Positions 806 through 64,000 of a stretch of 64,000 bases of DNA are shown here, in pieces. The stretch spans positions 73,410,001 through 73,474,000 of the forward strand of contig OZ076409.1 of assembly GCA_964187785.1 (NCBI GenBank), written 5' to 3'. Each line of letters begins with the position of its first letter. The first letter of the stretch is position 1. Below the pieces are notes generated by a model. The model was not told the origin of the DNA and did not search any database. It saw only the letters and a list, made by a program, of their open reading frames with translations. This stretch comes from Amphiscolops sp. MND2022 (lineage: Eukaryota). Made by a program: the position numbers and the translations under genes.

Positions 806-825
806 GGGCATGCCGAGGCATGCCC
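806..825. promoter_or_regulatory. Conserved palindrome GGGCATGCCGAGGCATGCCC; p53-family response-element-like and/or hairpin (representative copy)
   Basis: It matches RRRCWWGYYY x2 with zero spacer at 19 of 20 positions and is also a perfect 9-bp inverted repeat with a GA loop. It precedes 34 of 38 junctions, e.g. 2790, 4776, 9530, 25532, 26821, 45297, 49102, 55108, 57286, 59747, 63419. Confidence 0.6.
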
Positions 826-847
826 TTCGACGACGTATGCCGAATAC

Positions 848-877
848 CGCGGGCCTACGCCCGCGCTCCCCGGCTAG
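848..877 (+). mobile_element. Helitron-like 3' terminus: GC-rich hairpin followed by CTAG (representative copy)
   Basis: CGCGGGC-CTAC-GCCCGCG (848-865) lies 8 nt upstream of CTAG (874-877). Different hairpins occupy the same place at 9579-9596, 18316-18333, 39708-39721 and 52980-52993. Confidence 0.5.
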
Positions 878-3800
878 GTGGGCGGGGGTAATTCCCCAAC
901 AAAAATTACGGCCGGCGGGTTGGGTCCTGCCGGACGTCAAATAGCAAAGAATATCTAGTAGGAAACGGCGACACAGAATCGCGATTTTTAAATCTAACCA
1001 CAATTTTTTGGACTTGGAGTGCATGCGGCCCTGAAATGCCCATACGAATCGAAGTTCCTGCTGACGTTAAGCGATTGAAATAATATATAAAAAGTTATGG
1101 CCCATTTTTGGGTCACCGAGAAGGGCAAAATGAGGAAAATTTTAACTAAGTCGCTGATAACTCAAAATGTGTTAATTTTTGGACATTGACTGTGAAACAA
1201 GCTTGGAACCTTCATTTCGTGGCTGTGGCATTGCACTGAACACAAAAGATGTAAAGTTTTTACATTTTTTGAAAATTCGACATTTTTGAATTTTTTTTCA
1301 CTAGTATCAGCACCCCATATGTCAAAAACGCCTCAGAAAAAAATTTTTATTTGCTTTAAATTGGAAACCTTGGTATCCATGGTTTCTGTCGGAACCTACT
1401 CGCAGCCAAACACCCAACAGTTTGCATCCAATGTGAAAAGAAAAATTTTTTCTGGGTCATAAGCGTTTCACAAGGATTTCTCAACTTAGTATTAATTTAC
1501 AAAATGGTCATTTTGAACACAAAATTTTCATCGAGGCTTGTCGGCTATAGGCTTAATGTTCTAGAACGGTCCCACTGGCAACGTAGGAACCATTTATAGT
1601 AATTCAAAGTTATAAAAAAATTTTTTCACCCGTTCTTCAGTCATTTTTCAGACATTCGGAACTTATCTTAGAAAAATTTCGTCTCAAACACCCGTTTTTT
1701 GACAGGTCGAAAAATCAAATTAGGATTTTTAAGCAAAATTATTATTTCTGACGTAACCCATGGGGCCCATGATACTCAAAACAACGATTGACACTGGTAT
1801 CAATGGCTCCAATAACATATGAGTCGCGATAAGACGTTATTTTGAGCAATACGTCTCAATTGAGGTAAACATCTCGCAAGCCTGGGATCACAGTGAAATG
1901 TAAATTCATCAAAAATTTACTCATTTTTGTCAATCACTATGTGCACAGAGTGCGTAGGGTGAGTTCCAGCACTATAATGAGGTTTTTGAAGGCATCGGGT
2001 TGCTCAAGGGGTGGTATGAGACATTTTTGTCCCATATACTACTGTATTTTCCAAATTTTTTAGCCCAATATCTGGGAATAGAAATTTGACAAAATACTTT
2101 CAACTACTTTATTCAGAGGTTACAATATAGATGAACACTGTGGTTGATCAGAAACTTTCATCTCTTTCGTTTTCCGAAATTTTTCTCTTCGCATGTGTTA
2201 CATTTGTAGCAGAAAAAAAGTCGATACTGAAAAATACGCTATTTTGCTAATATAGAATCGCAATGATTGTGCCTAAAAACTCTTTAAACACTTCTAACGC
2301 AACCTTACGCACCCAAAATGATCGAAAATGCTATTCACAATGGTGACATGTGCTCTTTCAACGATCCTGACTGAACAATTTTCGCAAATTATTCAAGTAC
2401 CTGTTAACTGAATCTCGTGATAGCCTTTTAAGTTGGCCTTGTGTCAACTTGGGAAGGCTATCACATCAAAAAATTTGCAACAAAAATACATTTTGTTTAT
2501 TGGAAATGACAGTCGATGTATAATTTTGTGATTCTATACTACCGTTAGTACCTTCCATTAAGTCACCTGACGATTGCATCCAGTCTTTGATAAATACCTA
2601 TGAACTCGAAGTCATATTTATAAATTTTGTGCTAAAAATAAACATAAAAATTATCCAAATTATTTAAAATTGAGTCTTTACCGTTTTTGTTTTTCTTTTT
2701 CTACTGTTATTAGGCCCATCAACTTCCTACAGCCACGCTCTCTGTCATACCGTACAACGCCACATAGTGTTGCGACGTGCACAGTCTGTGGGCATGCCGA
2801 GGCATGCCCTTCGACGACGTATGCCGAATACCGCGGGCCTACGCCCGCGCTCCCCGGCTAGGTGGGCGGGGGTAATTCCCCTTCAAAAAATTCGGCCGGC
2901 GGGTTGGGTCCTGCCGGACGTCAAATAGTGTGAAACATCCAGTAGGAAACGGCGACATAAATCAGCGATTTTAAAATTTAACCGTTAGAATTCGGACTTG
3001 GAGTGCATGCGGCCCCAAAATGCCCATACGAATCGAAGTTCCTGCTGACGTTAAGCGATAAAAACACTTTATAAAAAGTTATGGCCCATTTTACGTTCAC
3101 TTAGAGAGGTAAAATGAGGAAAATTTTAACAAAGTCGCTGATAACTCAAAATGTGTTAATTTTTGGCTTTTGACTGTGAAACAAGCTTAGAACCTTCATT
3201 TCGTGGCTGTGGCATTGCACTGAACACAAAAGATGTAAATTTTTTTAAATTTTTTGAAAATTCGACATTTTTGAATTTTTTTTCACTACTATCAGTACCC
3301 GATATGTCAAAAACACATCAGAAAATTTTTTTTATTTGCTTTAAATTGGAAACCTTGGTATCCATGGTTTCTGTCGGAACCTACTCGCTGCCAAACACCC
3401 AACAGTTTGCATCCAATGTGAATTTAAAATGTTTTTCGAGGTCATAAGGGTCTCACAAGGTTTTCATAACTTAGTATTAAACTACAAACTGGTCATTTTC
3501 AACATAATATCTTTGTCGAGGCAAGTCGGATATAGTCCTATTGCTCACGAACGGTCCTACTGGCAACGTAATAACCATTTATAGAAATGTAAAGTTATAA
3601 AAAAATTTTTCACCCGGTCTTCAGTCATTTTTCAGTCATTCGGAACTTAACTTAGAAAAATTTCGACCAAAATATCCATTTTTTGTCAGGTCGAAAAATC
3701 AAATTCAGGTTTTTAAGCAAAATTATTAACTCTGACGTAACCCATGGGGCCCATGATACTCAAAACAACGATTGACACTGGTATCAATGGCTCCAATAAC

Positions 3801-6800
3801 ATATGAGTCGCGATAAGACGTTATTTTGAGCATTACGTCTCAATTGAGGTAAAGATCTCGCAAGACAGTGATCACTGTGAAATGTGATTTCATCAAAAAT
3901 TTACTCTTTTTTGTCAATCACTATGTGTACAGAATGCGTAGGGTGCGTTTCAGCACTATAATGAGGTTTTTGAAGGCATCGAGTTGCTCAAGGGGTGGTA
4001 TGAGACATTTTTGTCCCATATACTACTGTATTTTCCAAAAATTTTAGCCCAATATCTGGAAATACAAACTTGACAAAATACTTTCAACTACTTTATTCAA
4101 AGGTTACAATATAGATGAACACTGTGGTTGATCAGAAACTTTCATCTCTTTCGTTTTCCGAATTATTTCCCTTCGCATGTGTTACATTCGTAGCAGAAAA
4201 AAAATCGAAACTGAAAAATACGCTATTTTGCTAATATAGAATCGCAATGATTGTGCCTAAAAACTCTTTAAACACTTCTAACGCAACCTTACGCACCCAA
4301 AATGATCGAAAATGCTATTCACAATGGTGACATGTGCTCTTTCTACGATCCTGGCTGGACAAGGTTTGCATATTTTTCAAGTACCTGTTAACTGAATCTC
4401 GTGATAGCCTTTTCAGTTGGCCTTGTGTCAACTTGGGAAGGCTATCACATCAAAAAACCATCAACAAAAATAGTTTTTGTTTATTGGATCTTACAGTCGA
4501 TACTTTTTTTCGTGATTCTATACTACCGTTAGTATATTTCATCAGGTCACCTTACGATTGCATTCAGTCTTTGATAAAAACCTATGAACTCAAAGTCACA
4601 TTTATATATTTTTTTGCCAGAAAATAACATAAAAAATATCTAAAATATATAAAATAGAGTCTTTAACATTTTTACGTTTCAAGTTTTTGCCGTTATTAGG
4701 CCAATCAACGTCCTAGAGCCACATCCTGCCACATACTGTACAACGCCACATAGTGTTGCGACGTGCACAGTCTGTGGGCATGCCGAGGCATGCCCTTCGA
4801 CGACGTATGCCGAATACCGCGGGCCTACGCCCGCGCTCCCCGGCTAGGTGGGCGGGGGTAATTCCCCAACTAAAAAATCGGCCGGCGGGTAGGGTCCTGC
4901 CGGCCGTCCAAAATCAAAAATATACTAGTAGAAAACGGCCGGTCAAACGAGCTATTTTTTTATTTAACCGTTAGAATTTGGGTTTAGATTGCATGCGGCC
5001 ATGAAATGGCCATACGAATCGAAGTTCCTGCTGACGTTTTGCGATTGAAACACTTTATAAAAAGTTATGGCCAATTTGTCAGTCACCTAGAAGGGCAAAA
5101 TGAGGAAAATTTTAACAAAGTCGCTAATAACTCAAAATGTGTTATTTTTTGGACTTTGACTGTGAAACAAGCTTGGAACCTTCATTTCGTGGCTGTGGCA
5201 TTGCACTGAACCCAAAAGATGTAAAGTTTTTACATTTTTTGAAAATTTGACATTTTTGAAATTTTTTTCACTACTATCAGTACCATATATGTCAAAAACA
5301 CCTCAGAAAAAAAATTTTATTTGCTTTAACTTGGAAACCTTGGTATCCATGGTTTCTGTCGGAACCTACTCGCAACCAAACAACCAACAGTTTGCATCCA
5401 ATGTGAAAATAAAAAATTTTTCTGGGTCATAAGCGTTTCACAAGGATTTCTCAACTTAGTATTAATTTACAAAATGGTCATTTTGAACACAATATTTTCA
5501 TCGAGGCTTGTCGGCTATAGCCTTAATGTTCTAGAACGGTCCCACTGGCAACGTAGGAACCATTTATAGTAATAGAAAGTTTAAAAAAATATTTTCACCC
5601 TGTCTTCAGTCATTTTTCAGTCATTCGGAACTTAACTTAGAAAAATTTCGACCAAAATACCCATTTTTTGACAGATCGAAAATTCAAATTCAACTTTTTA
5701 AGCAAAATTAGTAACTCTGACGTAACCAGTGGGGCTCATGATACTCAAAAACACGATTGGGACTGGTACCAATGGCTCCAATATCATATGAGCCGCGATA
5801 AGACGTTATTTTGAGCAATACGTCTCAATTGAGGGAAACATCTCGCAAGCCTGGGATCACAGTTAAAAGTGATTTCGTCAAAAATTTACTCTTTTTCGTC
5901 AATCACTATGTACACAGAGTGCGTAGGGTGAGTTTCAGCACTATAATGCGGTTTTTGAAGGAATCGGTCTGCTCAAGGGGTGGTATGAGACATTTTTTTT
6001 GCATGTAGTACTATATTTCTCAAAACTTTTAGCCCAATATCTCGAAAAGCTCACTTCGCAAATTACTTTCAGTTACTCTATTCGAAGCTTAGAATTTATA
6101 TGAACACTGTGGTTGATCAGAAACTCTTGACTATTTTGTTTTTGGAAAAAAACTGCCTTGCATGTGTTACATTAGTGGCAGGAAAAATACCAGTAGCTCC
6201 AAAAATCACAATTTTGGACGGACAGACCTGCAATGATGCAAAGCAAAAACGTTTCAACAACTTCTGGCGCCACTTTTTTTACCCAAGAGGTTCGAAATTA
6301 CTATTAACAATGCTGACATTCGCTATAAATAAGATCGAGGTCAATTTACTAACACTTAGGTTATACATTTATATCTGAGAAACCATTCTTTGTCAGGTCG
6401 CAATTTTAAATTTAGTTTGGGAAGCAATACTTTTCACTCTGAAGCAAACCGTTGGGCCCAAATTACTCAAAAACTACAAAAAGACTGTCACCATATGCCC
6501 TAATAGCATATGAGATTCGACCGTATGTTTTTAACACAAAAACTCTCATCCGAAGTAAACATGTTGAAAGCCTTGAATCACCGTGAGAAATGATTTCATC
6601 AAAAAATATTCCTTTTTCGTCAATCTTTATCTACACAGAACACGTTGTGTCATTTTCAGCCGTGAAATGAGCTTCTACCGTAATATGGGTTGCTCAAGGT
6701 GTTGTATAAGACAAAAACTTCCTCTTTTCTACTATCTTCTTCAAATATTTCAACCCTTTGTCACAAGAAGTTAATATTCAAAATCTCTTTGAAATGTTTC

Positions 6801-7081
6801 TTTAGGTTGGGGTGAAGTGTTAGAACAATAATTATGATCGAAGAATGATAGTATTGGTGTTTGGACCATGTCCGGATGAACAAATTGCAAAATCATGAAA
6901 AATTTCTTACCATTTTTGGTCATTTTGTCAGTACTAAAAATGTTAGCTGAAAAAGAATTTTTTGATGGCACCATTGGATTCCTCTCAAAAAGTTAGCTAT
7001 ATGAACTGTGTAATAACCCCGTATCTTTTCAATTTAAATAATTTTAAAAAGCAAACTTTTTTGACTAAAATCCTAAAAATG

Positions 7082-8425
7082 ATACCATTTCCTAAAAAAT
7101 TTCAAATGCCCCCCATTTGACGTATAAGAATAGCACAGAAAACTATCACATACCGATCGACTCTACTTCCATTGTAGATTACCAGAATTTTGTTTAGAAC
7201 AATTTTTGACGGATGCAAAAAAAATTTAAACCCTCCAAAAAAGGGCCAAAATTACACGAAAAAATTGACCTTAAAATTTTAAAATGTCGAAAAATCATCA
7301 AAACCACAGCTTCTTGGGGTTCTATCAACTACACGTGGTCCACAGAGTATGTTAAAACAAGTTTTACCCGTATTTGAGCAATATGTGAAAAAGCCGACTT
7401 TTTTGGGAATGAAAAACATACTATTTCCTAAAAAATTTCAAACGCACCCCATTTGACGTATAAGAATAGCACAGAAAACTATCACATACCGATCGACTCT
7501 ACTTCCATTGTAGGTTACCAGAATCTTGTTTAGAACAATTGTTGACGGATGCAAAAAAAAATTAAACCCTCCAAAAATGGGCCAAAATTACACGAAAAAA
7601 TTGACTTAAAATTTTAAAATGTCAAAAAATCATCAAAACCACAGCTTCTTGGGGTTCTATCAACTCCACGTGGTCCACAGAGTATGCTAAAACAGGTTTT
7701 ACATGTTTCTGAGCTATATGTGAAAAAACCGACATTTTGGGGAAGAAAAACATACCATTTCTTAAAAAATTTCAAATGCACGCCATTTGCCGTATGAGAA
7801 TAGCACAGAAAACTATCACATACCGATCAACTCTACTTCTATTGTAGATTATCAGATTTTTGTTTAGAACAAATTTTTATGGATATAAAAAATTTTTAAA
7901 CCCTCCAAAAATGAGCCAAAATAACACGAAAAAATGGACCCTAAATTTTTAAAATGTCAAAAAATTATCCAAACCACAGCTTCTTGGGGTTCTATCAGCT
8001 CCACGTGGTCCACAGAGTATGCTAAAACAGGTTTTGCCCGTTTTTGAGCAGTATATGAAAAAGCCGACATTTTTGGGGAAGAAAAACATACCATTTCCTA
8101 AATAATTTCAAATGCAGGCAATTTGCCATATGAGAGTAGCACAGAAAACTATCACACACCGATCAACTCTACTTCTTTTGTAGATTATCAGAATTATGTT
8201 TAGAGTAAAGTTTTATGGATATGAAAAATTTTTATACCCTCCAAAAATGGGCCAAAATGACACGAAAAAATTGACCTCAAATTTTTAAAATGTCAAAAAA
8301 TTATCCAAACCACAGCGTCTTGGCGTTCTATCAACTCCAAATGACCTTCAGAGTATACCAAACCAGGTATTGCCAATCTTTTGAGCAATATTTAAAAACA
8401 CCGACTATTTGGCAAGAACACCATA
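7082..8425 (+). repeat. Internal tandem repeat, 4 x ~335 bp
   Basis: ATAC(C/T)ATTTC(C/T)TAAA starts at 7082, 7418, 7752 and 8088. Copies share GAATAGCACAGAAAACTATCACA and CACGTGGTCCACAG; the fourth copy is more diverged. Confidence 0.92.
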
Positions 8426-11400
8426 ATATGTTCCATATAAGAAGTGAATCATTCCACATATATACCCGGTCTAATATTTCCAAATTAGCGATAACATTTA
8501 TACATGATGGTTTTTGAAAGTGAGCTTCATAAGAGGTTGAGATGTAATAATACGTAAATGGACCCTAAGTTTCATTGAAATCTCAATGGAATACGTCCAA
8601 TCAACTTCAATCCTAACTATTATATAACAAAAAACACTTGAGTACATTCCATCTCCCCATCGGGGGAGATGAGAATGTACTTTTCAAAAGCCAAAAACTT
8701 CGAATTTTAAATCTTTTGTAACATTGTATGTAACTGTTGAAACGATGAACGAATGAAAATGCTTCTAGTACCTTCATCAATTTTTGCTTCAGCTCCTATT
8801 TCTGCAGAACAAAACCAAAAGACACACTTACAGCAGTTAAGTTCGATTGTATAACTCAGTGAGTAAAGGTATGACTGAGGAAGTTCACAAGTTGTTTCAA
8901 AAGTTTCCGGCCTTCCAAAATCATGAAACGTCCACACAACCAAGATAGCAAGTGAAAGAATGCTGAATGCACCTTATTAGATGAGATAAATAATGTGTGG
9001 AACTTGCCATTATCTCAAGATGACGTTGATTTATGATCTTTTAAGGATAGTTCGATATGTGACCACAATAGTGGAAAACTTATTACTATTTGAAGAACAC
9101 CGTGGAAAGCGTTCAGAAAGGACAGTATATTTGTTTCGAGCATGCATGCGTGTGTTCCTTTGGTGACGTTAGCTTAGTGTACATGACGGAGGTATTCGAG
9201 AGATTATGATAGAGTTTACTCACAAGTCTTTGTTTTTTTAAACTTTCTATGCCGTTGAGTACATTCGTAAGGTACATCCATCCCCTTCTCTGGGAATGTA
9301 CGTTTGCCAAATGACTGTCATCCAAAATTCGTAATCCGGACGAGTTTAACTACATAAACATGTGATGAGCGTTTTCAATTCACAACCGAATAACATTTTT
9401 TTCTCGAAAATGATGATGGTTTTGATTTTGATGTCTTCTACTTTTATCATCATGCAAACGACCTTACCATGTCTCTCTTCTGTCGTCATTTGTACAACGC
9501 CACATAGCGTTCCGACGCCCACCGTCTGTGGGCATGCCGAGGCATGCCCTTCGACGACGTATGCCAAATGAGCCATACCCGCACTCTGGAGTGCGGTAGC
9601 GGCTAGGTGGGCGGGGGTAATTCCCCTTCAAAAAATTCGGCCGGCGGGTTGGGTCCTGCCGGACGTCAAATAGTGTGAAACATCCAGTAGGAAACGGCGA
9701 CATAAATCAGCGATTTTGAAATTTAACCGTTAGAATTCGGACTTGGAGTGCATGCGGCCCCAAAATGCCCATACGAATCGAAGTTCCTGCTGACGTTAAG
9801 CGATAAAAACACTTTATAAAAAGTTATGGCCCAATTTACGTTCACTTAGAGAGGTAAAATGAGGAAAATTTTAACAAAGTTGCTGATAACTCAAAATACA
9901 ATAATTTTTGGCTTTTGACTGTGAAACAAGCTTGGAACCTTCATTTCGTGGCTGTGGCATTGCACTGAACACAAAAGATGTAAAGTTTTCACATTTTTTG
10001 AAAATTCGACATTTTTGAATTTTTTTTCACTACTATCAGTACACTATATATCAAAAACACCTCTGAAAAATTTTTTTTTTGCTTAAATTTAGAAACCTCG
10101 GTATCCATGGTTTCCGTCAGTACCTACTCGCTGCCAAACACTCAACAGTTTGCATCCAATGTGAAAATAAAATTTTTTTCGAGGTCTTAGGTGTTTCACA
10201 AGGATTTCTCAACTTAGTATCAATTTACAAATTGGTCATTTTGAACACATTATTTTCATCGAAGCGTGTCATATACCGCCCTAATGCTCACGAACGGGCC
10301 TACTGGCAACGTTGGAACCATTTATAGTAATAAAAAGTTTTAAAAAAATTTTTTCACCCCGTCTTCAGTCATTTTACACACTTTCGGAACTTAACTTAGA
10401 AAAATTTCAACCAAAAACCCATTTTTTGTCAAGTCGAAAATTCAAATTCAGCTTTTTAATCAAAATAAATAAATCTGACATAACCAGTGGGGCCCATGAA
10501 ACTCAAAACCACGATTGAGACTGGTATCAATGGCTCCAATAACATTTGAGTCGCGATAAGACGCTATTTTGAGCAAAACATCTCAATTGAGGTAAAGATC
10601 TCGCAAGCCAGCGATCACTGTGAAATGTGATTTCATCAAAAATTTACTCTTTTTTGTCAATCACTATGTGCACAGAATGCGTAGGGTGCGTTTCAGCACT
10701 ATAATGAGGTTTTTGAAGGCATCGAGTTGCTCAAGGGGTGGTATGAGACATTTTTGTCCCATATACTACTGTAGTTTCCAAAATTTTTACCCCAATATCT
10801 GGAAATACAAACTTGACAAAATACTTTCAACTACTTTATTCAAAGGTTACAATATAGATGAACACTGTGGTTGATAAGAAACTTTCATCTCTTTCGTTTT
10901 CGGAAATATTTCCGTTCGCATGTGTTACATTCATAGCAGAAAAAAAAATCGAAACTGAAAAATACGCTATTTTGCTGATATAGAATCGCAATGATTGTGC
11001 CTAAAAACTCTTTAAACACTTCTAACGCAACCTTACGCACACAAAATGATCGAAAATGCTATTCACAATGGTGACATGTGCTCTTTCTACGATCCTGGCT
11101 GGACAAGGTTTGCATATTTTTCAAGTACCTGTCAGCTAAATCTTGTGATAGCCTTTTCAGTTGGCCTTGTGTCAACTTGGGAAGGCTATCACATCAAAAA
11201 ACTATCAACAAAAATAATTTTTGTTTATTGGATCTTACAGTCGATACTTTTTTTCGTGATTCTATACTACCGTTAGTATATTTCATCAGGTCACCTTACG
11301 ATTGCATTCAGTTTTGATAAAAACCTATGAACTCAAAGTCACATTTATATATTTTTTTGCCAGAAAATAACATCAAAAATATCTAAAATATATAAAATAG

Positions 11401-13826
11401 AGTCTTTAACATTTTTACGTTTCAAGTTTTTGCCGTTATTAGGCCAATCAACGTCCTAGAGCCACATCCTGCCACATACTGTACAACGCCACATAGTGTT
11501 GCGACGTGCACAGTCTGTGGGCATGCCGAGGCATGCCCTTCGACGACGTATGCCGAATACCGCGGGCCTACGCCCGCGCTCCCCGGCTAGGTGGGCGGGG
11601 GTAATTCCCCAACAAAAAAATCGGCCGGCGGGTCGGGTCCTGCCGGCCGTCCAAAATCAAAATCCTCCTAGTAGAAAACGGCATGTCAAACGAGCTATTT
11701 TTTTATTTAACCATACGAATTTCACCATTTTTTGCATGCGGCCCTGAAATGGCCATACGAGACGAAGTTCCTGCTGACGTTTTGCGATGTAAATGTTTTA
11801 TAAAAAGTTATGGCCGATTTGTCATTCACCTAGAAGGGTAAAGTGAGGAAAATTTTAACAAAGTCGCTGATAACTCAAAATGTGGTAATTTTTGGACTTT
11901 GACTGTGAAACAAGCTTGGAACCTTCATTTCGTGGCTGGGGCATTGGATTGAACACAAAAGATGTAAAGTTTTTACATTTTTTGAAAATTTGACATTTTT
12001 GAAATTTTTTTCACTACTATCAGTACCATATATGTCAAAAACACCTCAGAAAAAAAATTTTATTTGCTTTAACTTGGAAACCTTGGTATCCATGGTTTCT
12101 GTCGGAACCTACTCGCAACCAAACAACCAACAGTTTGCATCCAATGTGAAAATAAAAAATTTTTCTGGGTCATAAGCGTTTCACAAGGATTTCTCAACTT
12201 AGTATTAATTTACAAAATGGTCATTTTGAACACAATATTTTCATCGAGGCTTGTCGGCTATAGCCTTAATGTTCTAGAACGGTCCCACTGGCAACGTAGG
12301 AACCATTTATAGTAATAGAAAGTTTAAAAAATATATTTTCACCCTGTTTTCAGTCATTTTTCAGTCATTCGGAACTTAACTTAGAAAAATTTCGACCAAA
12401 ATACCCATTTTTTGACAGATCGAAAATTCAAATTCAACTTTTTAAGCAAAATTAGTAACTCTGACGTAACCAGTGGGGCTCATGATACTCAAAAACACGA
12501 TTGGGACTGGTACCAATGGCTCCAATATCATATGAGCCGCGATAAGACGTTATTTTGAGCAATACGTCTCAATTGAGGGAAACATCTCGCAAGCCTGGGA
12601 TCACAGTTAAAAGTGATTTCGTCAAAAATTTACTCTTTTTCGTCAATCACTATGTACACAGAGTGCGTAGGGTGAGTTTCAGCACTATAATGCGGTTTTT
12701 GAAGGAATCGGTCTGCTCAAGGGGTGGTATGAGACATTTTTTTTGCATGTAGTACTATATTTCTCAAAACTTTTAGCCCAATATCTCGAAAAGCTCACTT
12801 CGCAAATTACTTTCAGTTACTCTATTCGAAGCTTAGAATATATATGAACACTGTGGTTGATCAGAAACTCTTGACTATTTTGTTTTTGGAAAAAAACTGC
12901 CTTGCATGTGTTACATTAGTGGCAGGAAAAATACCAGTAGCTCCAAAAATCACAATTTTGGACGGACAGACCTGCAATGATGCAAAGCAAAAACGTTTCA
13001 ACAACTTCTGGCGCCACTTTTTTTACCCAAGAGGTTCGAAATTACTATTAACAATGCTGACATTCGCTATAAATAAGATCGAGGTCAATTTACCAACACT
13101 TAGGTTATACATTTATATCTGAGAAACCATTCTTTGTCAGGTCGCAATTTTAAATTCAGTTTGGGAAGCAATACTTTTCACTCTGAAGCAAACCGTTGGG
13201 CCCAAATTACTCAAAAACTACAAAAAGACTGTCACCATATGCCCTAATAGCATATGAGATTCGACCGTATGTTTTTAACACAAAAACTCTCATCCGAAGT
13301 AAACATGTTGAAAGCCTTGAATCACCGTGAGAAATGATTTCATCAAAAAATATTCCTTTTTCGTCAATCTTTATCTACACAGAACACGTTGTGTCATTTT
13401 CAGCCGTGAAATGAGCTTCTACCGTAATATGGGTTGCTCAAGGTGTTGTATAAGACAAAAACTTCCTCTTTTCTACTATCTTCTTCAAATATTTCAACCC
13501 TTTGTCACAAGAAGTTAATATTCAAAATCTCTTTGAAAGGTTTCTTTAGGTTGGGGTGAAGTGTTAGAACAATAGTTATGATCGAAGAATGATAGTATTG
13601 GTGTTTGGACCATGTCCGGATGAACAAATTGCAAAATCATGAAAAATTTCTTACCATTTTTGGTCATTTTGTCAGTACTAAAAATGTTAGCTGAAAAAGA
13701 ATTTTTTTGATGGCACCATTGGATTCCTCTCAAAAAGTTAGCTATATGAACTGTGTAATAACCCCGTATCTTTTCAATTTAAATAATTTTAAAAAGCAAA
13801 CTTTTTTGACTAAAATCCTAAAAATC

Positions 13827-24100: not shown

Positions 24101-24287
24101 ATTGAGTCTTTAACGTTTGTATTTTTTGTTTTTCTACTGTTGTTAGGCCCATGAACATCTTACAGCCACGCTGTCTGTCATTAGTACAACGCCACATAGT
24201 GTTGCGACGTCCACCGTCCGTGGGCATGCCGAGGCATGCCCTTCGACGACGTATGCCAAATATACGCGTTAGCGCGGTAGCAGCTAG

Positions 24288-53003: not shown

Positions 53004-56000
53004 GTGGAGGTTATTATATATCAATTAAAGTGTTTTTTTCCGGAGTTTGTGGCTTTGGAAAAAACAAAAGGCGAGAAATTGGGCACTCCAGGCTGAACCT
53101 AAAAACACCCTAAAATTGGCCCGATTTTTTTACGATCTCGAAACCCAGCCGTACGATTTGGCTGAAATTTTGCATGTGGCTCCTAATCAATGAGTAATGA
53201 AAAAGTGTAGGAGTGACTTTTCCTGGGAAAATTGTTTTTGTTGCATTTTTTGCGCAATTTTTGACCGATTGTTGCGTTTTTTATGTCACTTTTGACTTTT
53301 CAGGCAAAAAACTCATGGATGCTTTGATCCTAGCGCATCAAGTGTTTCGACCAAAAAGTTGCAGCATGTTCTTTTACGTATGTTGAGAAAATTTGGTTGC
53401 CATCGTATTACCCCCCACTGAGATAGAGGGGAACTTCCGGTGGAATTTAGGACCCTAAAAACGAGGACCTCCTAAATTTCAGCATGAAGCGGTAGTTTTA
53501 GCGTGCTCATACCCTGCTGAAACTTTGTTGGCCATAATGAGATAGTCATGATATCATGTGTTCAGTTCAACCCCCATCACCCCCTGGACCGGAAATGAAC
53601 TTTTTTGTGCACTATCATACCGGAAGTCTCCAATTTCACCGTTAAGCAGTCCTTGTACGAGCAACTACCAGGACATCAAAATTGAAAAACCACCTGAGGT
53701 CAACATAGTGACTACGTGTTGTCCAGTCATAGGTTCCGCTATGACCGGAAATGGGGTCAAAAGCCCCTATTTTGGTTGTTTTTTAACAATTTTACTAGTG
53801 TTTGGTCCACATTCAAGTCGCGTAAGTCAATTGAATCAGTGTGAGCAAAAACTGTATGTTCACTGCGTAGACGTAACTGACACTGGCAGATACCGGAAGT
53901 AACCCCCCGTGACCGGAAGTTGCCAGTTTCGACCGGAAATGGTCCAAAATGTAGCGTAAAACTAGTTTTTTACTGCTTTTTAAAGTCAACTTATTACTTT
54001 TTCAATCTCCGCGAGCTTGTAATCAGGTTCGTTTTTGTTACCCGTGCACTTTGCAACAAATATACATCTGTAAAAGTTTCTCTATAATATCGTCGGATAG
54101 AGAAATAACGTGTTTTTGGGACTTTTTTTCAAAAATATTAGACTATATCTGTCATTTTTACTCAAAGTTTTTCAACTGTACAACCACAGTATTTAGTCTC
54201 TGCCCAAATTTTTGCCTAACAAAACTATTTGGCCCATTGGCTTTAGTTTGAGCGTTCCAGCTTTGCGTGATCATAAGCTAAAGGACTTGAAAAATTTTCA
54301 AACTTTTTTCAAAAAAAACTTCTCACATTCATATCTCCCAAAGTGAAGAAACTTCCACACAATTAGGATTGCAAGTGGATGCACGTGGCAAGCCCTATAA
54401 TTGAAGAGAAAAATGCCGCATAGAACGTCTCTTTATCGTAACTTGACGTTAACGTATGGTGCTTTGAATGAGAGCTTGATAAGAGGTCGAGAAGTCAAAG
54501 TGTGTAAATGGAACGTATTTCTCGTCGAAAACTCACCGGAATTCATGCAATGAACCCCAATTGTTCTAAATTGCAGTTGCCTACTGCAACAACGTCTTTC
54601 TGGTTCATTTACCCATTTTCATAAGTGTCAAAATTATTTTTGAATTCAGTTAGCAAGAAACACTTGAGTACATTTTCATCTCTCCCAAGCGGGTGAGATG
54701 AGAATGTTCTTGCTAAAAGCCAGGTACTACGTCCCACTTTTGTTTTAATGCGACACATCCTCTGCTTTAGCACATAGATAGTTTATTTTGCCTGATTTTT
54801 TGGATACTCTCTGACTTGTTATTATAAACTTCTCGTCATTACTTTACATGAATTTACAACCATAAAGCGTTATCGTCAACTCCACATACATTTAGACGCC
54901 CACCATTCCGTAGGTATGTCGAGGCATACCTTTCGATTTCGTATGTCAAAACGCAAACGCGATAAAAAGTGCTGAAATTCTGAAACAGTGATAAACAATT
55001 CTGACAATTTGACATATGGTAGGTTTTTATATGGAACTTAGACATCACTGACATTTCACAACATTCCAGCTGACGCCCACATACCAACATCAACGCCCAC
55101 CGTCCGTGGGCATGCCGAGGCATGCCCTTCGACGACTTATGCCAGTTATTTATATCTACACCCAATTGCGGTAGCCGCTAGGTGGATGGTATTTTATAAC
55201 AATTAAAGTGTTTTTTTCCGGAGTTTGTGGCTTTGGAAAAAACAAAAGGCGAGAAATTGGGCACTCCAGGCTGAACCTAAAAACACCCTAAAATTCGCCC
55301 GATTTTTTTACGATCTCGAAACCCAACCGTACGATTTGGCTGAAAATTTGCATGTGGCTCCTAATCAATGAGTAATGAAAAAGTGTAGAAGTGACTTTTC
55401 CTGGGAAAATTGTTTTTGTTGCACTTTTTGCGCAATTTTTGACCCATTGTTGCGTTTTTTATGTCACTTTCGACTTTTCAGGCAAAAAACTCATAGATGC
55501 TTTGATCCTAGCGCATCCAGTGTTTCGACCAAAAAGTTGCAACATGGTCTTTTACGTACGTTGTGAAAATTTGGTAGCCATCGTATCACCCCCCACTGAG
55601 TTAGAGGGGAACTTCCGGTGGATTTTAGCACCCTAAAAACAAGGACCTCCTAAACTTCAGCATGAAGCCGTAGTTTTAGCGTGCTCATAACCTGCTGAAG
55701 TTTTGTTGGGCATGTTGAGATAGTCATGATAGCATGTGTTTAGTTCACCCCCCATCACCCCCTGGACCGGAAATGAACTTTTTGTGCACTATCATTCCGG
55801 AAGTCTCCAGTTTCACCGTTAAGCAGTCCTTGTACGAGCAACTACCAGGTCATCAAAATTGAAGTACCACCTGAGGTCAACGTAGTGACTACGTGTTGTC
55901 CAGTCATAGGTTCCTCTATGACCGGAAATGGGGTCAAAACCCCCTTTTTTGGTTGTTTTTTAACAATTTGACTAGTGTTTGGTCCACAATCAAGTCGCGT

Positions 56001-57360
56001 AAGTCCATTGAATCAGTGAGAGCAGAAATTGTATGTTCACTGCGTAGACATAACTGACTCTGACAGATACCGGAAGTAACCCCCCGTGACCGGAAGTTGT
56101 CATTTTTGACCGGAAATGGTCCAAAATAAAGCGTAAAATCAGTTTTTCACTGCTTTTTAAAGTCAACTTATTACTTTTTCAATCTTCGCGAGCTTGTATT
56201 CAGATTCGTTTGTGTTACCCGTGCACTTTGCAACGAATATACATCTGTAAAGTTTTCTCTATATTATAGTCTGATAGAGAAATAACGTGTTTTTGGGACT
56301 TTTTTCAAAATTATTAGACTATATCTGTCATTTTGACCCAACGTTATTCAACAGTACAACCACAGTGGTTAGTCTCTGCCCAAATATATGCCTAACAAAA
56401 CTATTTGGCCCATTGGCCTCAGTTTGAGCGTTCCAGCTTTGCGTGTTCATTAGCTAAGGGACTTGAAAAATTTTCAAACTTTTTCAAAAAAAATTTTTTC
56501 TCATATTTTTGTCTCCCAGAGTGAAGAAACTTTCACACAACTAGGATTGCTACTGGATGCATGTGGCAAGCCCTATAATTGAAGGGAAAAATTCCGCTTA
56601 GAACGTCTCTTTATCGTAACTTGACGTTAACGTATGGTGCTTTGAATGAGAGCTTGATAAGAGGTCGAGAAGTCAAAGTGTGTGAATGGAACGTATGTCT
56701 CGTCGCAAACTCATCGGAATACATGCAATGAACCCCAATTGTCCTGAATTGCAGTTGCCTACTGCAACAACGTTTTTCTGGTACATTTTACTCTTTTTCA
56801 TAAGTGTCAAAATTAGTTTTAAATTCAGTTAGCAAGAAACAATTGAGTACATTTTCATCTCTCCCCAGCGGGTGAGATGAGAATGTTCTTGCTAAATGCC
56901 AGGTACTACGGCCTCCTTTTGTTTTATTGCGATGCATTCTCTGCTTCAGCACATAGATATTTTATTTCGCTTGATTGTTTGTATACTCTCTGACTTGTTA
57001 TTATAAATTTCTCGTCATTACTTTACATAAATTTGCAACCATGAAACGGTATCGTCAACGCCACATACATTTAGACGCCACCATTCCGTAGGTATGTCGA
57101 GGCATACCTTTCGATTACGTATGTCAAAACGCAAACGCGATAAAAAATGCTGAAAGTCTGAAACAGTGACAAACAATTTTGACTATTTGACATATGGTAT
57201 GTTTTTATATGGAAGTTACGCATCACAGACATTTCACAACTTTCCAGCTGACGCCCACATACCAACATCAACGCCCACCGTCCGTGGGCATGCCGAGGCA
57301 TGCCCTTCGACGACGTATGCCAATTTCTATATATCTACACCCAATTGCGGTAGCAGCTAG
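53004..57360 (+). mobile_element. Two tandem ~2.18-kb units with a duplicated 3' module
   Basis: Spacings are 2178 and 2179. Each has the ETS-motif module, a diverged 1.28-kb-family module, a type B hairpin and two palindrome copies 196 bp apart. Confidence 0.6.
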
Positions 57361-58430
57361 GTGGTCAAGGGGGATGCCCATCAGAAAATATTGCGAGGCC
57401 GGGGAGGGTCCCGAGAGCCGAGCACATTCTATCAATTCCTACCTTCAGGATTGCGAAGTATTTTAACCGATCTCGAAATTCACCCGTAGGATTTGTCTGA
57501 AACTTTGCATGTGGCTTTATCTCAAAAATTTAAGAACTTTTTTCTGCTGACGTTTTTCCAGGAAAATTCATTTTGTAGGGTTTTTTTGCGTTTTTTTGGT
57601 TTTTTTCATCTTTTTTCATCTTTGATTAATCAATGACCGAATCAAAGGCCATTTTCACCATGAAGGAAAGCCCGTAGCGGCAAAGTGCACTTTTATGAAA
57701 ATCATCAACGGTCAACGGTCTTTCGAACGGTCCGAAAAAATTTCCCCCCGGGGGAAACCAAAGTGCCAAAAAGTGCCAAATATATTTTTTTGACTGAATC
57801 ACTTTGATCAAATTGATGATTTGAGCAGCCGGAACGGTCCGCACGGTCTCGGACAATAAGGTCAAAAATTGTCAGCATCCAATGGGGGTTCCAAAAATGT
57901 AATTCGTTCATTTGTAGGAGACATCAGAAAAAAGTTGATTTTTTGGGGTATATGTCATTATGAGTGATTGGATGAGAAATAATTGTATCACTTTCAGTTG
58001 GATATGATGCAGCACAGGAAGCAGCTGCAGCAAACTTGAAACTGATTATGGGGCTGGGGTTTACCCTCTGTATTGAGCAAAATAGCCCTAGGGCATAAGT
58101 TGTGCCAAAAAATGCCTCGAAGTGATGATTTGGTTATTGCAAATCGATCAGCAAAATTTATTGTCACCGGTGTTCCGAGAGTTGCGCAGCATCTCGCAGG
58201 AACAACGGTGCTTGCTTAGAAAGCAAAAAACCACAAAATCCCTTGAGTTAAGTTGACGGCAGTCACCATAGACATTCACTCGTCAGGGTGATGATATTTA
58301 TCGTTCAATCCCAGAATAACTTACAAAAAATTGCTAGCGTCAATATTTCTTTTTCATACTCCATTAGCAAAGGTTGCGCTGTTAAGTTTAGGCCTTTTAC
58401 TAGCAGTGCTCTAAATCGCTCCATCGCTAG
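57361..58430 (+). mobile_element. 1070-bp unit with conserved 5' end and unique interior
   Basis: Bounded by CTAGGTG at 57357 and 58427. It has GGGGAGGGTCC at 57401 and a GGATTTGTCTGAAACTTTGCATG box near 57490, but no palindrome and no type A/B hairpin. Confidence 0.55.
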
Positions 58431-59818
58431 GTGGTTGGGGCGGTCCCCAGAACGCACAAGGAGGCGCGGGGAGGGTCCTGCGCCGACGTAGAATAATTTC
58501 ATATAATACTAGTATCCTACATGGGTGTTTTAGAGGCGATTTTGGAATCTAACCGTAGGATTTGGATAATTTTTTGCATGCGGCCATAACTCGAAATTCT
58601 AAGAACTTTTTCCTACTGTCATTTTCCCCGCAAATTGTTTTTTGTTGACTCATGGCCGAAAAACCGGAAATAACGTCCTTTTTAGACGTTATATCCGAAG
58701 TGTCGTCATAACTTTTTTCCAGGGCATGCTAGCGTTCTCGTTCACTTTTACACTTAGTTGCAGCATCTCAAAATACAACTGGTGGAAAATTTTGGTTGCA
58801 TTCGGATCACCCCCCACCAAGTTAGAAGGGTTCCCCCCTCCAGTTTTACCCCCCAAATTTGCAAAATAGCCAAATTTGAGCATGAAGCCGAGGATTTAGC
58901 GTACCCGCACTCTCCTGATGTTTTGTTGTACGTATTGGGGTCAATCTGACGACATGTGTGGTTTTCACCCCCAACCCCCCCTTGGACCGGAAATGACACT
59001 TTTTTGTGTTTTTTGGCAGAATTTAGCCTTTTTCATTATTAGGCAGTCGTTTTAGGGACTCCTAGCAGGATATCGAAATTGAAATACAACCTGATCACAA
59101 CCCAGTGACAACATGTTGGCCACTTGGAGGTATCATCATGACCGGAAGTGGGGTCAACCCCCCTTTTTGTGACCGCTTTTTGACCTTGTGCACCAAAATG
59201 CCAACATCTTGAGGCCTAATGAGGCATTCAAATCTGTACAAAGATAAAATGTTAGACAACCGAAGCCCGGAAGATCTTTAGCATATACCGGAAGTTACCC
59301 CCTATGACCGGAAGTTACCCAATGTGACCGGAAATGGTCCAAAAATTATTGTAAAGTTGAATTTTTCACTATTTCAAAACCACTTAATTGAAACTTTTCA
59401 ATCTCAAAACTAGCGTACTGGCTTGTTTTGCTGAATTTATGGAAATTGATGAGCTCTATCGCCCCCGATAGCCTTCGAAGTTGACCTTGCGTCAACTTTG
59501 GAGGCTATCGATAAAGAAAAATGAACAACAAAGTACATTGTTGCTCTCGTTTTTCTCCCGTTGTTTTTCCTCAAACATTCTTGAGACATATACATGGCCG
59601 TTAGTTGAAATCAATATTCAGCCCATGTTATAGCTGGAGCAGCGAAGCGTTACACAGACTAGTGTGGTTTTGAAATCACACTATTTATATTAACAACTGA
59701 CCGTCTTAGTCAACTCCACACACTCATACCAACGCCCACCGTCTGTGGGCATGCCGAGGCATGCCCTTCGACGACGTATGACGAATCCATTCCAACGACA
59801 CCCGCAGTCCTCAGCTAG
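58431..59818 (+). mobile_element. 1388-bp unit with ACCGGAAR cluster and type A hairpin
   Basis: Diverged homologue of 43976-45366, with the hairpin at 59466-59510 and the palindrome at 59747. Confidence 0.6.
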
Positions 59819-62196
59819 GTGGTCGGGGCGCTCTCCCAACCTCTTCCGCCGCCTCGGGGAGGGTCCTGATTGGCGGCACCCCTTATGGAAAACTTACTGT
59901 TAGAAACGCACCAGTGTAATGCTGATTTCGAAAACCACCCGTACGATTTTGCTCAAATTTTGCATGTAGCTCCCAAATTCCAATACAAGAACTAATTCCT
60001 ACTGCCATTTTTCCGGGAAAACTCAAAAAGTTGGTCAAAAATGACATTTTCTGAGTGAAAAATGGCCATTTTTTGACTTTTTTATTTTTGATCGGCTATA
60101 ACTTTTTCCAGGGTGCTCGGATCGAAAAAAGTTTGTATAGGTAAAGTTGTTTGGCACTTCGAGTAGAACTCGTAGACAAATTTTGGTTGAGATCGGATGA
60201 AAATTGACTGAGAAATAACCGAAAAACCATCGATTTTTTGAAAAAAATTTTGACACACTAGTATGACTCTGCCGTTTTTCGGCCAAAGTTCTTTCTAGAA
60301 CCTCGTCTAAAGTCCTCCCCTGGCTGAATTACCTCCCAGCAAAACCATTTGGCCCATTTGCCGAAGTTTCAGCGTTCCAGCATTCCCCGGGTAAAAGATA
60401 AATGACTTAGAATTTTTACAAAAAAATTTCAAAAAAAAATTTTTTTTCTTCAAGCTTCCCAAAGTCAAGGAACTTCCACACAACTAGTATTGCAAGTGAA
60501 TGCATGTGGAAAGTGCTTGAATAGACGAGAAAAATGAGCTATAGAACGACTCTGTAGCTTAACCTGACGTTGACTTATGACAATTTGAGTGCGTGCTTGC
60601 TATGTGGCGAAATTGAGGAACAACCTAAAATGAAAGCTAAGTCTGATCTAAAACTTACCGAATTGCTTTTATTCAGCCCCAAAGCTGTTCAATTGCCGCT
60701 ATGTAGTGCAGCAACACTATCCAAGGCTTTTTAGGACGTTTTTAAGATGTCATTATGTTCTTTTTGGACAGTTTTTTTTGTACAAATAGGACTTTATTTT
60801 TCGGGACCTAACACTTTTTGCCAAAAAAGTCAAACTTCGTCCACACAACTTAGATTGCAAGTGAATGCATGCGGAGAGTGCATGAAGTGATGAGGAAAAT
60901 GAGCTATAGAACGCCCGTTTCCGACAACTTGACATGGACTTATAAGAGTTTGAAAAATCACAAAAAAAATGAACAACAATTCACTAACAGTGAGTTTGTA
61001 GTAAATGGCCCATATTTCCATACACAAGATTCTCAGCACAATTCTATACCTTTTCGTTTTTGTTGTCCGTGATTGTGCAAAAAATAAGTATTGGTAAAAG
61101 TTTCTGTAAAACATCGCCGGAAAGAGAAAAATGCGGAGTTTATGAGTAATTTTGTTTGAAAAATGACAAAATAGTCTATCTCTGCCGTTTCAGCACAAAT
61201 TTTTTAAAAAAAGACGCCCAGTAGGTAACCCATGGGCTAATTTCGTCTCAACAAAACGGTTGGGGTCATTTGCCGCAGTTTTAGCTTTATAGCATTCTCC
61301 GGGTAAAAGTTGTTGAACTTAGAAAATTTTTGAAATTTTTTCAAAATTTTTTTTAACTTCAGGCGGCCCAAAGTCAAGAAACTTCCACACAACTAGGATT
61401 GCAAGTAGATGCATGTGGAAAGCCCAGTAATTGGGGAGAAAAATGCCGTTTAGAACGTCTCTTTATCGTAACTTGATGTTGACTTATGATTCTTTAAATG
61501 GGAGCTTGATTTGAGGTTAAGAAGTCAAAGTGTGTAAATGGAACGTAAGTCTGGTCAAAAACTCATTGGAATACATGCAATGAACCTCAACTTATCCTCA
61601 ATTACAGTTGTCTAGTGCAAAGGTCTTTCAAAGTTGTTTCACTTCTTTTGATAAGTGTTGATGGTATAAACCATCAGTTATAGAGAAACACGTAAGTACA
61701 TTCTCATCTCTCCCCATCGGGGGAGATGAGAATGTACTCACCAAAGGTCAAAACTACTAAATGCCTTTTTTCTGTACCATTTTATGTCACTGTCGAAACA
61801 AACATAAACAAATTAGTTTCCGACTCCTCCTTGGGGTTTTGGTTTGACTTCTGTAAAAAAAAGGGTACGAGGACTTGGAGATCTTTTAAGTGTTCCAAAA
61901 GAGACCTCCTATTTCACACCGTGGAAAACTTGAAGACATTTGTCATGAAATCACCTACTAGGCTTCTCTCTGAGTACGCAAGTTCAATAAGTAACACATT
62001 TTATCTTCCATATTTGCTCCGATGACCAGGATTGGAAACTAAATTAACCCAAGGTACTTAGCCAAAACGAGCAATACCAACTTTTGATTGAAAACCTCAT
62101 CACAGTTTTTCTTTGAAAATTACCTTCATTGACTTCTCAATTTATCAACTCAATCTCCTTAAGCGGCCCTATTTTGACACAAGCCTGCAGCGCTAG
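59819..62196 (+). mobile_element. 2378-bp unit with a triplicated internal module and unique 3' end
   Basis: The CCACACAACT...TTGCAAGT..ATGCATG module occurs near 60476, 60841 and 61385. A type B hairpin lies near 61695-61739, and there is no palindrome before CTAG at 62193. Confidence 0.55.
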
Positions 62197-64000
62197 GTGC
62201 CCGGATTTCTATTCATTAAAGTATGTTGCGCGTGTGGGTAGGGCCCCGTGGCGCGCTCTTGTGTCCCTGTTCTCATAACTGCAATTTCCGGCAGCATTCT
62301 GAGCGATTTTCTAAACTATCCATACGATTCGGCTGAAATTTGGCACACGTACCCCCCTCGGCACGGTGAAGATGATTTCCTACTGACGTTTTTCCCGCAA
62401 AATTTTTTTGTTGTCCAAAATAACGGTTTTTGGGGTAAAATTTTGAACTTTTTTTAAATTTCATCTTATATCTCGCCACGGGTTTACGCTAGCGCTTCAA
62501 AACCCTGCTAAAGAAAGCTTGCAAACTGTCTCAGGAATGCGGTGTGAAATTTTCAGCACAATCGGACTTAAACTCGGGGAGATATAGCGTTTTTCCGGAG
62601 CGGGGGGGTTTCATTTTTCTAACGGTCCAGCTTATCTTAGCCATTTTTTCGAAAATGTACTCGCCTAAAGACCTCCCCTGGCCGGTTTTATTCCCAGCAA
62701 AACCATTTGGCCCTAAATACGGAGTTTCAGCGTTCCAGCATTCCCGGGCGAAAAGTTGTGGGACTTAGAAAATTTCAAAAATTTTCAAAAAAATTTTTTC
62801 CGTTTTCCGCCCTCCCCCCCGAGGGGAAAAGACCCCCCAACCAGTAATTTGAGTGAATTCATGTGGAAAGGCCATGTTTAGAGGAGAAAAATCCCGTTTA
62901 AATCGTCTTTTTATCTTTATTCAACGTTGACTTATGACGTTTTGAAGGTGATGTTTGGAGGTGTGAAGCCCGTGAAAAGTAAACGTTATGAGTATTTATC
63001 TGATCTGAAAGCCATTGAGATGAAACCTGTTTTGCTCAAAACGTAATTCATATCAGTTTGGTAGTCAATCAACACCCTTTGTTGTCATTTGACATCTTTT
63101 TTTGTTGATATAAGAAAAAATTTCGTGTATTTATTCATTTTTTTCTCATCAAATAACTTGAAACAGTTGAGTACATTCCATCCCCCCTTCACGGGGGAGA
63201 TGAGAATGTACTCGCAAAAAGCCCCAAACTACGGCCCTTACCTTCCCGAGCTACGCAGTATAAAGATTGCATATTGGTTCCGACATTTTGATAGAGTTAT
63301 ATCTTGGTAATCTGTCTGGATACGCAGAAAAACCAGCACGTGCTTTTTTTACCAAGTTGCTTACAACGACATTTATTTTATATCAACGCCCCCATCTTTA
63401 TCAACGCCCCCCGTCCGTGGGCATGCCGAGGCATGCCCTTCGACGACGCGCACCAAAATTTTCCCCGAGCGCGTTAGCCTAGGTGCCCGGATTTCTATTC
63501 ATTAAAGTATGTTGCGCGTGTGGGTAGGGCCCCTGGCGCGCTCTTGTGTCCCTGTTCTCATAACTGCAATTTCCGGCAGCATTCTGAGCGATTTTCTAAA
63601 CTATCCATACGATTCGGCTGAAATTTGGCACACGTACCCCCCTCGGCACGGTGAAGATGATTTCCTACTGACGTTTTTCCCGCAAAATTTTTTTTGTTGT
63701 CCAAAATAACGGTTTTTGGGGTAAAATTTTGAATTTTTTTTAAATTTTATCTTATATCTCGCCACGGGTTTACGCTAGCGCTTCAAAACCCTGCTAAAGA
63801 AAGCTTGCAAACTGTCTCAGGAATGCGGTGTGAAATTTTCAGCTCAATCGGACTCAAACTCGGGGAGATATAGCGTTTTTCCGGAGCGGGGGGGTTTCAT
63901 TTTTCTAACGGTCCAGCTTATCTTTGCCATTTTTTCGACAATGCACTCGCCTAAAGGCCTCCCCTGGCCGGTTTTATTCCCAGCAAAACCATTTGGCCCT
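62197..64000 (+). mobile_element. ~1.28-kb family units resume (one full, one partial)
   Basis: The body is nearly identical to the units at 25596 and 30750; spacing is 1286. Confidence 0.6.

Follow-up and report, generated by a model that had tools for sequence, protein, structure and literature searches.

The stretch analysed here, hereafter the window, is a 64,000-bp segment of chromosome C1 (C1:73,410,001-73,474,000) in the 1.07-Gb genome (G000) of Amphiscolops sp. MND2022. Junction searches and inspection of the flanking sequence showed that the whole window (1..64000, plus strand) is a slice of a head-to-tail array of predicted Helitron-like elements that extends beyond both of its ends. 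The heptamer CTAGGTG was found 38 times on the plus strand, between 874 and 63485, and twice on the minus strand, in both cases inside units. Shuffled sequences contained 2.51 ± 1.59 copies with a maximum of 6, and the 38 junctions listed in a preliminary description of this DNA were thus confirmed. At each of them, according to the termini of solitary copies described below, the 3' end of one element (CTAG) abuts the 5' end of the next (GTG). Cutting the window at CTAG^GTG yielded 37 whole units of 1,070-4,761 bp from several families, all of which start with GTG and end with CTAG. CTAG occurred 145 times in the window, of which 38 were at junctions, and the units also contain other internal CTNG sites. 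One unit type indeed follows four different upstream ends (at 26880, 33324, 34592 and 39732), as had been noted before. The units were also correctly described as non-coding: the longest stop-to-stop frame in the window was 213 amino acid residues, and searches of the units against Rfam (E ≤ 0.1) and for tRNAs returned no match, and an array of RNA genes was rejected.

The element was defined by its solitary copies. Four full-length solitary copies, all beginning with GTG and having different flanks, were recovered among 18 stretches fetched for that purpose. Two of them have empty paralogous sites, one in a tRNA-like sequence and one in a dispersed repeat of 1,170 copies, and in both the flanks rejoin exactly with no base gained or lost. 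For a third copy, the empty-site search returned the filled site only and no paralogue. Thus, the element has the form 5'-GTG...CTAG-3' and inserts without target duplication or loss at CTNG^NT. Given that the solitary copies have different flanks, the junction is the join of the element's own 3' and 5' ends and not a separate att site. In related observations, insertions into related tRNA-like sequences at CTAG^AT were found at two loci (L090 and L103), and for L090 ARAGORN, at a relaxed threshold, gave a tRNA-like cloverleaf when run on the empty site.

In one 3'-end family, CTAG was followed by GTG 2,003 times, by GT[ACT] 32 times and by a base other than G 49 times (G followed by a base other than T was not counted), and about 96% of this family abuts another unit. 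At the 30 non-G loci that were inspected, the next two bases were AT (21), TT (7), AC (1) and TA (1). A search for 5' ends preceded by [CGT]G, a pattern that did not require the C and T of CTNG, gave 147 matches (4 in the control). Among 30 of these that were examined, CTGG or CTTG was upstream in 28 and the other two were ordinary CTAG junctions. Twelve of the 28 follow a single unit family that itself terminates in CTGG and after which no fewer than seven different 5' ends occur. The 3' termini of units are nearly all CTAG, with some CTGG and a minority of CTTG. The junction that had been called invariant is therefore invariant in the window but not genome-wide.

The array was unbroken across all 304 kb of contiguous sequence examined, which contained 161 CTAG and 2 CTGG junctions. 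Junction and transposase matches placed its span on C1 from about 70.46 to at least 76.46 Mb (about 6 Mb), nearly all on one strand, and no match to the 1,170-copy dispersed repeat was listed between 70.0 and 76.6 Mb of C1. Genome-wide, the junction combined with the 5' hairpin motif described below had at least 3,731 matches, compared with 3 for a reverse-pattern control. The distribution was uneven, with one array of about 6 Mb and many small ones elsewhere on C1 and on several other chromosomes. A dispersed family with the same 5' hairpin motif was also observed on many chromosomes (L115, L117-L119, L122-L124 and L131), where it forms short CTGG^GTG and CTTG^GTG tandems; it is possibly an older or differently targeted sublineage. 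At C1:38,061,064-38,073,373 (L035, L020), 12.3 kb between CTAGGTG sites contained no 200-residue frame and at least one CTTG junction. At L136, L113 and L110, 5' ends were seen as short duplicates of 93 and 50 bp and, once, as a pair placed back to back in inverted orientation, an arrangement that recalls the multiple 5' termini of Fusarium Helitrons.

The preliminary description proposed that an enzyme encoded elsewhere, either an HUH Rep/helicase or a tyrosine recombinase, acts on these units, and that long units with the same termini might encode it. Such long units were found, and they lie within the same arrays. One of 12,383 bp, located 6 kb beyond the window between the same two junctions, encodes a frame of 2,371 amino acid residues, and two further long units (12,045 and 13,462 bp) are within 190 kb of the window. 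Overall, the long in-array units are 12-17 kb in length, have the ends of the window units and encode a transposase of about 2,350 residues. Both long-unit proteins scanned with Pfam possess Helitron_like_N (PF14214), PIF1 (PF05970) and a C-terminal GIY-YIG domain above the cut-off, and no tyrosine recombinase was detected in them. Of the two enzymes proposed, only the HUH Rep fused to a Pif1 helicase (RepHel) was therefore borne out. The array proteins show a YxxxY motif, and the HUH pair and the second tyrosine of the catalytic motif were conserved at 90% or more in an alignment of 25 relatives. The fold of the Rep domain is a prediction from profiles and motifs, and the ESM Atlas clusters nearest to the array RepHel were Helitron_like_N. 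The closest solved relatives of the GIY-YIG domain were UPF0213 and SLX1, with weak scores (E 0.02). Downstream of the transposase is a second frame of 290-440 residues (nine aligned), which had no Pfam match. In Foldseek, the model of its protein (predicted local distance difference test score 69) resembled RPA and further OB folds that bind single strands (best E 4e-6), and the best VIA Z was 9.8, with a root-mean-square deviation of 3.3 over 117 residues. This frame probably encodes an RPA-like OB-fold single-strand-binding protein.

A search of the genome with the Rep region returned 116 matches, many in frames of more than 2,100 residues and concentrated in arrays. Ten copies elsewhere were checked: all four with intact frames were between junctions, while five of the six with broken frames were not. 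Eight further loci of divergent lineages were inspected, of which four were delimited at both ends (12.2-17.0 kb), three at one end and one had no junction in 20 kb. Altogether, seven autonomous units were delimited at both ends. The array transposases form about six lineages that are 24-41% identical. Near-identical DNA ends on such divergent transposases suggest that element ends have been exchanged between lineages within the arrays. Some autonomous units also contain extra frames of about 215 residues (L033:237-887; L153:3785-4426, the region upstream of L154:3785).

Tyrosine recombinases are present elsewhere in the genome. Four PF00589 matches were found, at 2.08 Mb of C3 and on C1368, and none was linked to the arrays, although no screen of the flanks for junctions was made. 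A tyrosine-recombinase partner was rejected on these matches. At C3:2,081,591-2,086,792 (L002-L004), an open frame of about 1,055 residues contains three near-identical repeats of about 331 residues, which represent a tandem triplication or an assembly artefact; from their motifs, we take these repeats to be Crypton-like. C1368 (L001), a GC-rich contig unlike the main chromosomes, has a tyrosine-recombinase frame and possibly comes from a co-assembled organism.

The way in which units were copied was assessed from pairs of places that were about 98% identical over 300 bp, by scoring loss of identity in the next 100 bp. Identity was lost in 160 of 179 cases at junctions and in 0-11% at internal positions; in the reverse direction, the values were 117 of 264 at junctions and 0-6% internally. 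Neighbours were analyzed for 200 units. Among 54 unit pairs at least 98% identical, four shared the same upstream neighbour and one the same downstream neighbour. After clustering at 97%, there were two same-type neighbours and one repeated dimer, as in shuffles. Moreover, for 10 of the 37 window units, copies at least 97% identical from end to end were found in other arrays, in distant parts of their own array or at solitary sites (223 kb searched). Units are thus copied singly. Given single-unit switching and unshared neighbours, unequal crossover and concatemer insertion are unlikely to be the main builders of the array, while local bias and some internal recombination may still contribute. 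The earlier suggestion that the units are non-autonomous mobile elements joined singly at a fixed site agrees with the switches at 160 of 179 junctions, the unshared neighbours and the autonomous partner found.

The window units fall into local groups, all on the plus strand. A local domain at 878..24287 consists of units of about 1.98 kb (seven whole) and two units of about 4.76 kb. In one of the latter, a 336-bp internal tandem repeat is present in four copies (7082..8410, without strand assignment), and the second copy of the 4.76-kb unit has the 336-bp repeats at 13821-15155; these are a possible seed of ordinary satellites. The unit at 22309..24287 has end-to-end copies of 98.2-98.8% identity on C2, C3, C4 and C6, of which three are solitary and two are in targets with existing empty paralogues. 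Mixed non-autonomous units of about 1.27-1.31 kb, together with one of 1.68 kb and one of 1.39 kb, are at 24288..51726. Many of them have large parts of their first ~800 bp in common with autonomous elements; for instance, the unit at 24288-25595 is 89% identical to an autonomous element over the first 879 bp and that at 38459-39735 is 93% identical over the first 760 bp. Close to their 3' ends, window units and autonomous elements were 90-100% identical over 50-90 bp. Two units at 49166..51726 are 85% identical over the first 772 bp to the 5' end of a 13.5-kb autonomous element (P0001 lineage). More divergent families (1.07, 1.28, 1.39, 2.18 and 2.38 kb) with the identical CTAG^GTG junction are at 51727..63482. 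Some interiors had been called unrelated, which was too strong: the unit at 51727-53003 aligns weakly with the 1.28-kb family (at most 35% coverage, 73-77% identity) and has shared blocks.

The units called unrelated also have common subterminal motifs. The motif GG-N-AGGG-N-YC was found in 33 of the 37 window units, mostly near +40, and lies in a 5' subterminal hairpin (for example at 24318..24347, plus strand); another conserved block can be seen around +105-150. In 27 dereplicated 5' ends, hairpin arms paired with their own partner at a mean of -8.1 kcal/mol and with swapped partners at -5.3 ± 0.35, the best of 300 swaps reaching -6.8 kcal/mol, weaker than the own-partner mean. The stem arms covary between unit families. 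Own arms pair better than swapped arms, and therefore the 5' hairpin is conserved although its sequence varies. A 3' subterminal palindrome about 60-70 bp before CTAG was present in 33 of 37 units (for example at 25533..25550, plus strand). An internal inverted repeat, usually about 300 bp before the 3' end, was present in 24 of 37 units (for example at 25283..25325, plus strand) and in none of the seven fully delimited autonomous units.

Taken together, our results probably reflect a divergent Helitron-like lineage, recognized from its sequence features, whose 12-17 kb autonomous members mobilise units of 1-5 kb, most likely by homing into their own junctions. The autonomous members, which are predicted to supply the RepHel-GIY-YIG protein and the RPA-like single-strand-binding protein, would act on the non-autonomous units as well. 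By analogy with Helraiser and IS91, RepHel may nick CTAG^GTG and peel off one strand; the peeled strand would close to a circle, whose join is again CTAG^GTG, and the circle would be transferred into a target nicked at CTNG^NT. Helraiser is reported to move through a circle in which its ends are joined head to tail, and to insert at A^T with no target duplication (PMC5876387). The key step would be that a chromosomal junction combines a perfect target core with a complete origin, the 5' hairpin and the +105-150 block, to which RepHel is already bound; the hairpin and the conserved block probably load the enzyme. Combining target core and loaded origin, such a junction would out-compete the many bare CTNG^NT sites, a preference that we infer from the ~96% occupancy and the random unit order. 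Each insertion would leave two usable junctions, so that further insertions inside the array, in near-random order, would enlarge it and keep it polar. The SLX1/UPF0213-like GIY-YIG domain might, speculatively, cut a flap or the second strand of a branched intermediate. Alternatively, it might cut the arrays and promote exchange, as proposed for KolobokP in the accessible part of PMC13565253.

Several observations weigh against homing as the whole explanation. Mosaic units exist, with internal switches of up to 11%, so homologous recombination also acts; family identity, said to switch exactly at the junction, did so mostly, but internal switches were also seen, with the peak of 11% some 600 bp before the 3' end. 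With clustering at 90%, 22 same-type neighbours were counted versus 13.4 in 10-unit block shuffles (p=0.0075), so that the independence of neighbours held at 97% clustering but not for related units at 90%. Six 5' ends (L093, L110-L114) have no CTNG upstream. In several lineages, GIY-YIG is in a separate frame or gave no match. Among seven 3' ends that were folded, four, one of them autonomous, were no better than shuffles. Finally, instead of junction recognition, the bias toward arrays might reflect re-insertion close to the donor or the disappearance of dispersed copies.

The last point is the core of the main rival, which we regard as unlikely. It invokes the same elements and enzyme but no junction recognition: a relaxed CTNG^NT rule, re-insertion at a nick in the donor region and purging or decay of dispersed copies. 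The local family domains, the mild excess of related neighbours, the mostly broken dispersed autonomous copies and the more than 80 non-junction 3' ends in one family are consistent with it. However, the units hold internal CTAG and CTNG sites, yet internally interrupted units were seldom seen, and near-identical units are found in arrays of different chromosomes with different neighbours.

Much less probable is a Helitron-derived satellite whose amplification and shuffling were due to unequal crossover or gene conversion; GIY-YIG cuts at junctions might have stimulated these processes, a role also suggested for the nuclease of KolobokP multimers. The mosaic units, a few repeated two-unit blocks and the KolobokP model itself, as given in the available part of PMC13565253, agree with this explanation. 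Neighbours were hardly ever co-duplicated, however (4 and 1 of 54), the breakpoints are at the 7-bp join rather than in shared blocks of several hundred bp, and the same units form precise solitary insertions. A simple satellite or higher-order repeat was rejected, as repeated dimers were not in excess. Insertion of rolling-circle concatemers, in which several units are read through and the multimer is then inserted, is very improbable. Head-to-tail Helitron arrays in plants and bats (PMC5876387) and the bypass of element ends as a known Helitron behaviour (PMC5148889) are reported in the available parts of these papers, but concatemers predict identical neighbours or repeated blocks, and the counts at 97% clustering matched those of shuffles, which largely refuted this option. 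An integron- or Crypton-like array made by a tyrosine recombinase crossing over within CTAGGTG is barely credible: it would fit the fixed core, the unit-precise order and the recombinase matches in the genome, but the long units encode RepHel, the proteins scanned with Pfam contain no recombinase, the solitary copies do not have the 7-bp core at each of their two ends, and the four matches to recombinases lie at 2.08 Mb of C3 and on C1368.

If homing into own junctions is true, a transposon would turn directly into megabase tandem DNA, without unequal crossover, through an IS91-like tetranucleotide rule and landing in its own junctions, and the arrays would be a self-made safe haven common to very different transposases. 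It would also be a natural, site-preferring and scarless integrator with a cargo of up to 17 kb; for genome engineering, the ability to place 12-17 kb precisely and free of duplication at a defined site would be useful. Given the many intact, near-identical autonomous copies, the system can be tested for target choice, for the second-strand step, in which the fused nuclease is a candidate, and for the role of the RPA-like protein.

The features above identify the array elements as probable rolling-circle Helitron-like transposons of a deeply divergent lineage rather than an integron. They encode RepHel, with an HUH Rep, two tyrosines and Pif1, and show no target-site duplication in the two filled/empty comparisons. 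Ordinary dispersed HLE1-type and HLE2-type Helitrons were also observed in this genome (L161-L169). Compared with the in-genome HLE1-type (n=2) and DUF6570-bearing HLE2-type (n=4) proteins, the array proteins gave matches almost only in the helicase, at about 20-38%. A FastTree phylogeny was built from 43 rows, after removal of 5 of 48 in which the start motif had been mis-located. In it, a long branch with full support separated the array proteins, together with 28 database relatives, from the other rows. The tree carried a long-branch warning, its references were few (two of HLE1 type) and assigned by Pfam profile, and the relatives were picked by similarity to the query; with these limits and the dropped rows, the distinctness that it shows is limited to these references.

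The Rep region had 435 relatives among 50%-identity representatives. In 19 long distant relatives, hand-picked from 150 listed, a C-terminal GIY-YIG was present in 16. DUF6570 and AP-endonuclease were found in neither of the two array RepHel proteins nor in any of the 19 relatives, while DUF6570 was detected in all four in-genome HLE2-type controls. One distant relative (P0074) combines RepHel with an N-terminal OTU protease domain and matches GIY-YIG weakly. Of 33 metagenome loci from a sister branch, 20 were longer than 6 kb, and 7 of these encode a relative of the RPA-like protein. In two distinct metagenome elements, the 5' hairpin motif of the array units recurs 2.2-2.5 kb ahead of the transposase match, with CTNG^TT about 55 bp before the motif. 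This pattern, with about 1.7 motif matches expected in 248 kb by a rough estimate, is only suggestive of kinship with the array elements. No array was seen in the metagenome contigs of the sister branch, which are short, so the case for junction homing concerns the present genome (G000) only. No loci related to query P0025 were found in viral and metagenome contigs, none related to query P0070 in viral contigs, and a search of a phage collection gave no match. In the full-text literature, as far as available, neither a clade with RepHel-GIY-YIG proteins nor mixed arrays targeted to junctions were described; members could be present in Repbase, in subscription journals or in the HELIANO supplements.

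In the available portion of PMC11417382, HLE1 elements have 5' TC, 3' CTRR and an A^T target, HLE2 elements have inverted termini, a T^T target and DUF6570, one Sphagnum HLE2 family has captured a GIY-YIG, and some elements are unclassified. Similar to HLE1 and Helraiser as described there, the array elements have RepHel, a 3' CTAG, no target duplication, an RPA-like gene downstream and non-autonomous derivatives with shared termini. Their 3' ends agree with CTRR in the prevailing CTAG and in CTGG, with CTTG as a minority. Different from HLE1, they begin with GTG instead of TC, insert at CTNG^NT instead of A^T, and carry a conserved hairpin near the 5' end and a fused C-terminal GIY-YIG. Their 3' palindrome, although present in 33 of 37 units, is 60-70 bp from the end, and, with 4 of 7 folds no better than shuffles, a 3' hairpin is not universal. 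The Helraiser and array transposases match in a helicase stretch alone (E 1e-5), and in the FastTree phylogeny, subject to its long-branch warning, the array transposases were outside the two in-genome HLE1-type proteins on a long branch. Similar to HLE2 (Helentron, Helitron2 and proto-Helentron, as partially available sources describe them), the array elements have a RepHel of more than 2,000 residues with a C-terminal nuclease, and a 3' CTAG and a 5' stem-loop are present, as in proto-Helentrons. Different from HLE2, they have no terminal inverted repeats by inspection, a CTNG^NT rather than T^T target, no DUF6570 or AP-endonuclease and a separate tree branch, in a comparison that covered neither the Sphagnum protein nor the unclassified HELIANO clusters.

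In the accessible part of PMC13181058, IS91 uses the target CTTG and the terminus CTCG, has a Y2 HUH enzyme, makes no duplication, chooses a target tetranucleotide resembling its terminal cleavage site and forms circles with joined ends. Likewise, the array target CTNG resembles the ends CTAG, CTGG and CTTG. Different from IS91, in a comparison by features and not by transposase homology, the array elements are eukaryotic, helicase-fused (Pif1), 12-17 kb in length and in megabase mixed arrays. Replitrons are also HUH transposons with both ends bounded by a short similar motif (PMC10288648), but have a Y1 Rep without helicase instead of YxxxY and Pif1. Tandem or centromeric Helitron arrays of plants, bats, Meloidogyne and Hydractinia are, in the partial accounts available, also clustered Helitron DNA with autonomous and non-autonomous elements together, and consist of rolling-circle multimers, satellites or elements between satellite blocks. 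In the array described here, by contrast, elements of six transposase lineages and units of dozens of types are intermingled one after another at a single join.

In an integron, discrete units form an ordered-looking series in which a short conserved core links one to the next. The array has discrete units at such a core, but neither a tyrosine integrase in the scanned proteins nor gene cassettes nor evidence of a single insertion point, and its partner is an HUH RepHel within the arrays. The integron-like interpretation of the preliminary description was therefore not sustained: with no gene cassettes and no evidence of excision, the term is an analogy only. Helitrons, for their part, have been described as inserting at dinucleotides with little specificity. 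The feature is real and unusual, behaving like a Helitron with an IS91-like target rule that agrees with neither HLE1 nor HLE2 in the combination of termini and target. More tentatively, and with somewhat less than even confidence, we propose that these elements are a third major eukaryotic RepHel lineage, widespread in metagenomes and marked by a fused GIY-YIG and an RPA-like gene, whose own origin junction would be its integration site, at least six transposase lineages sharing a self-renewing landing pad that builds megabase mixed arrays.

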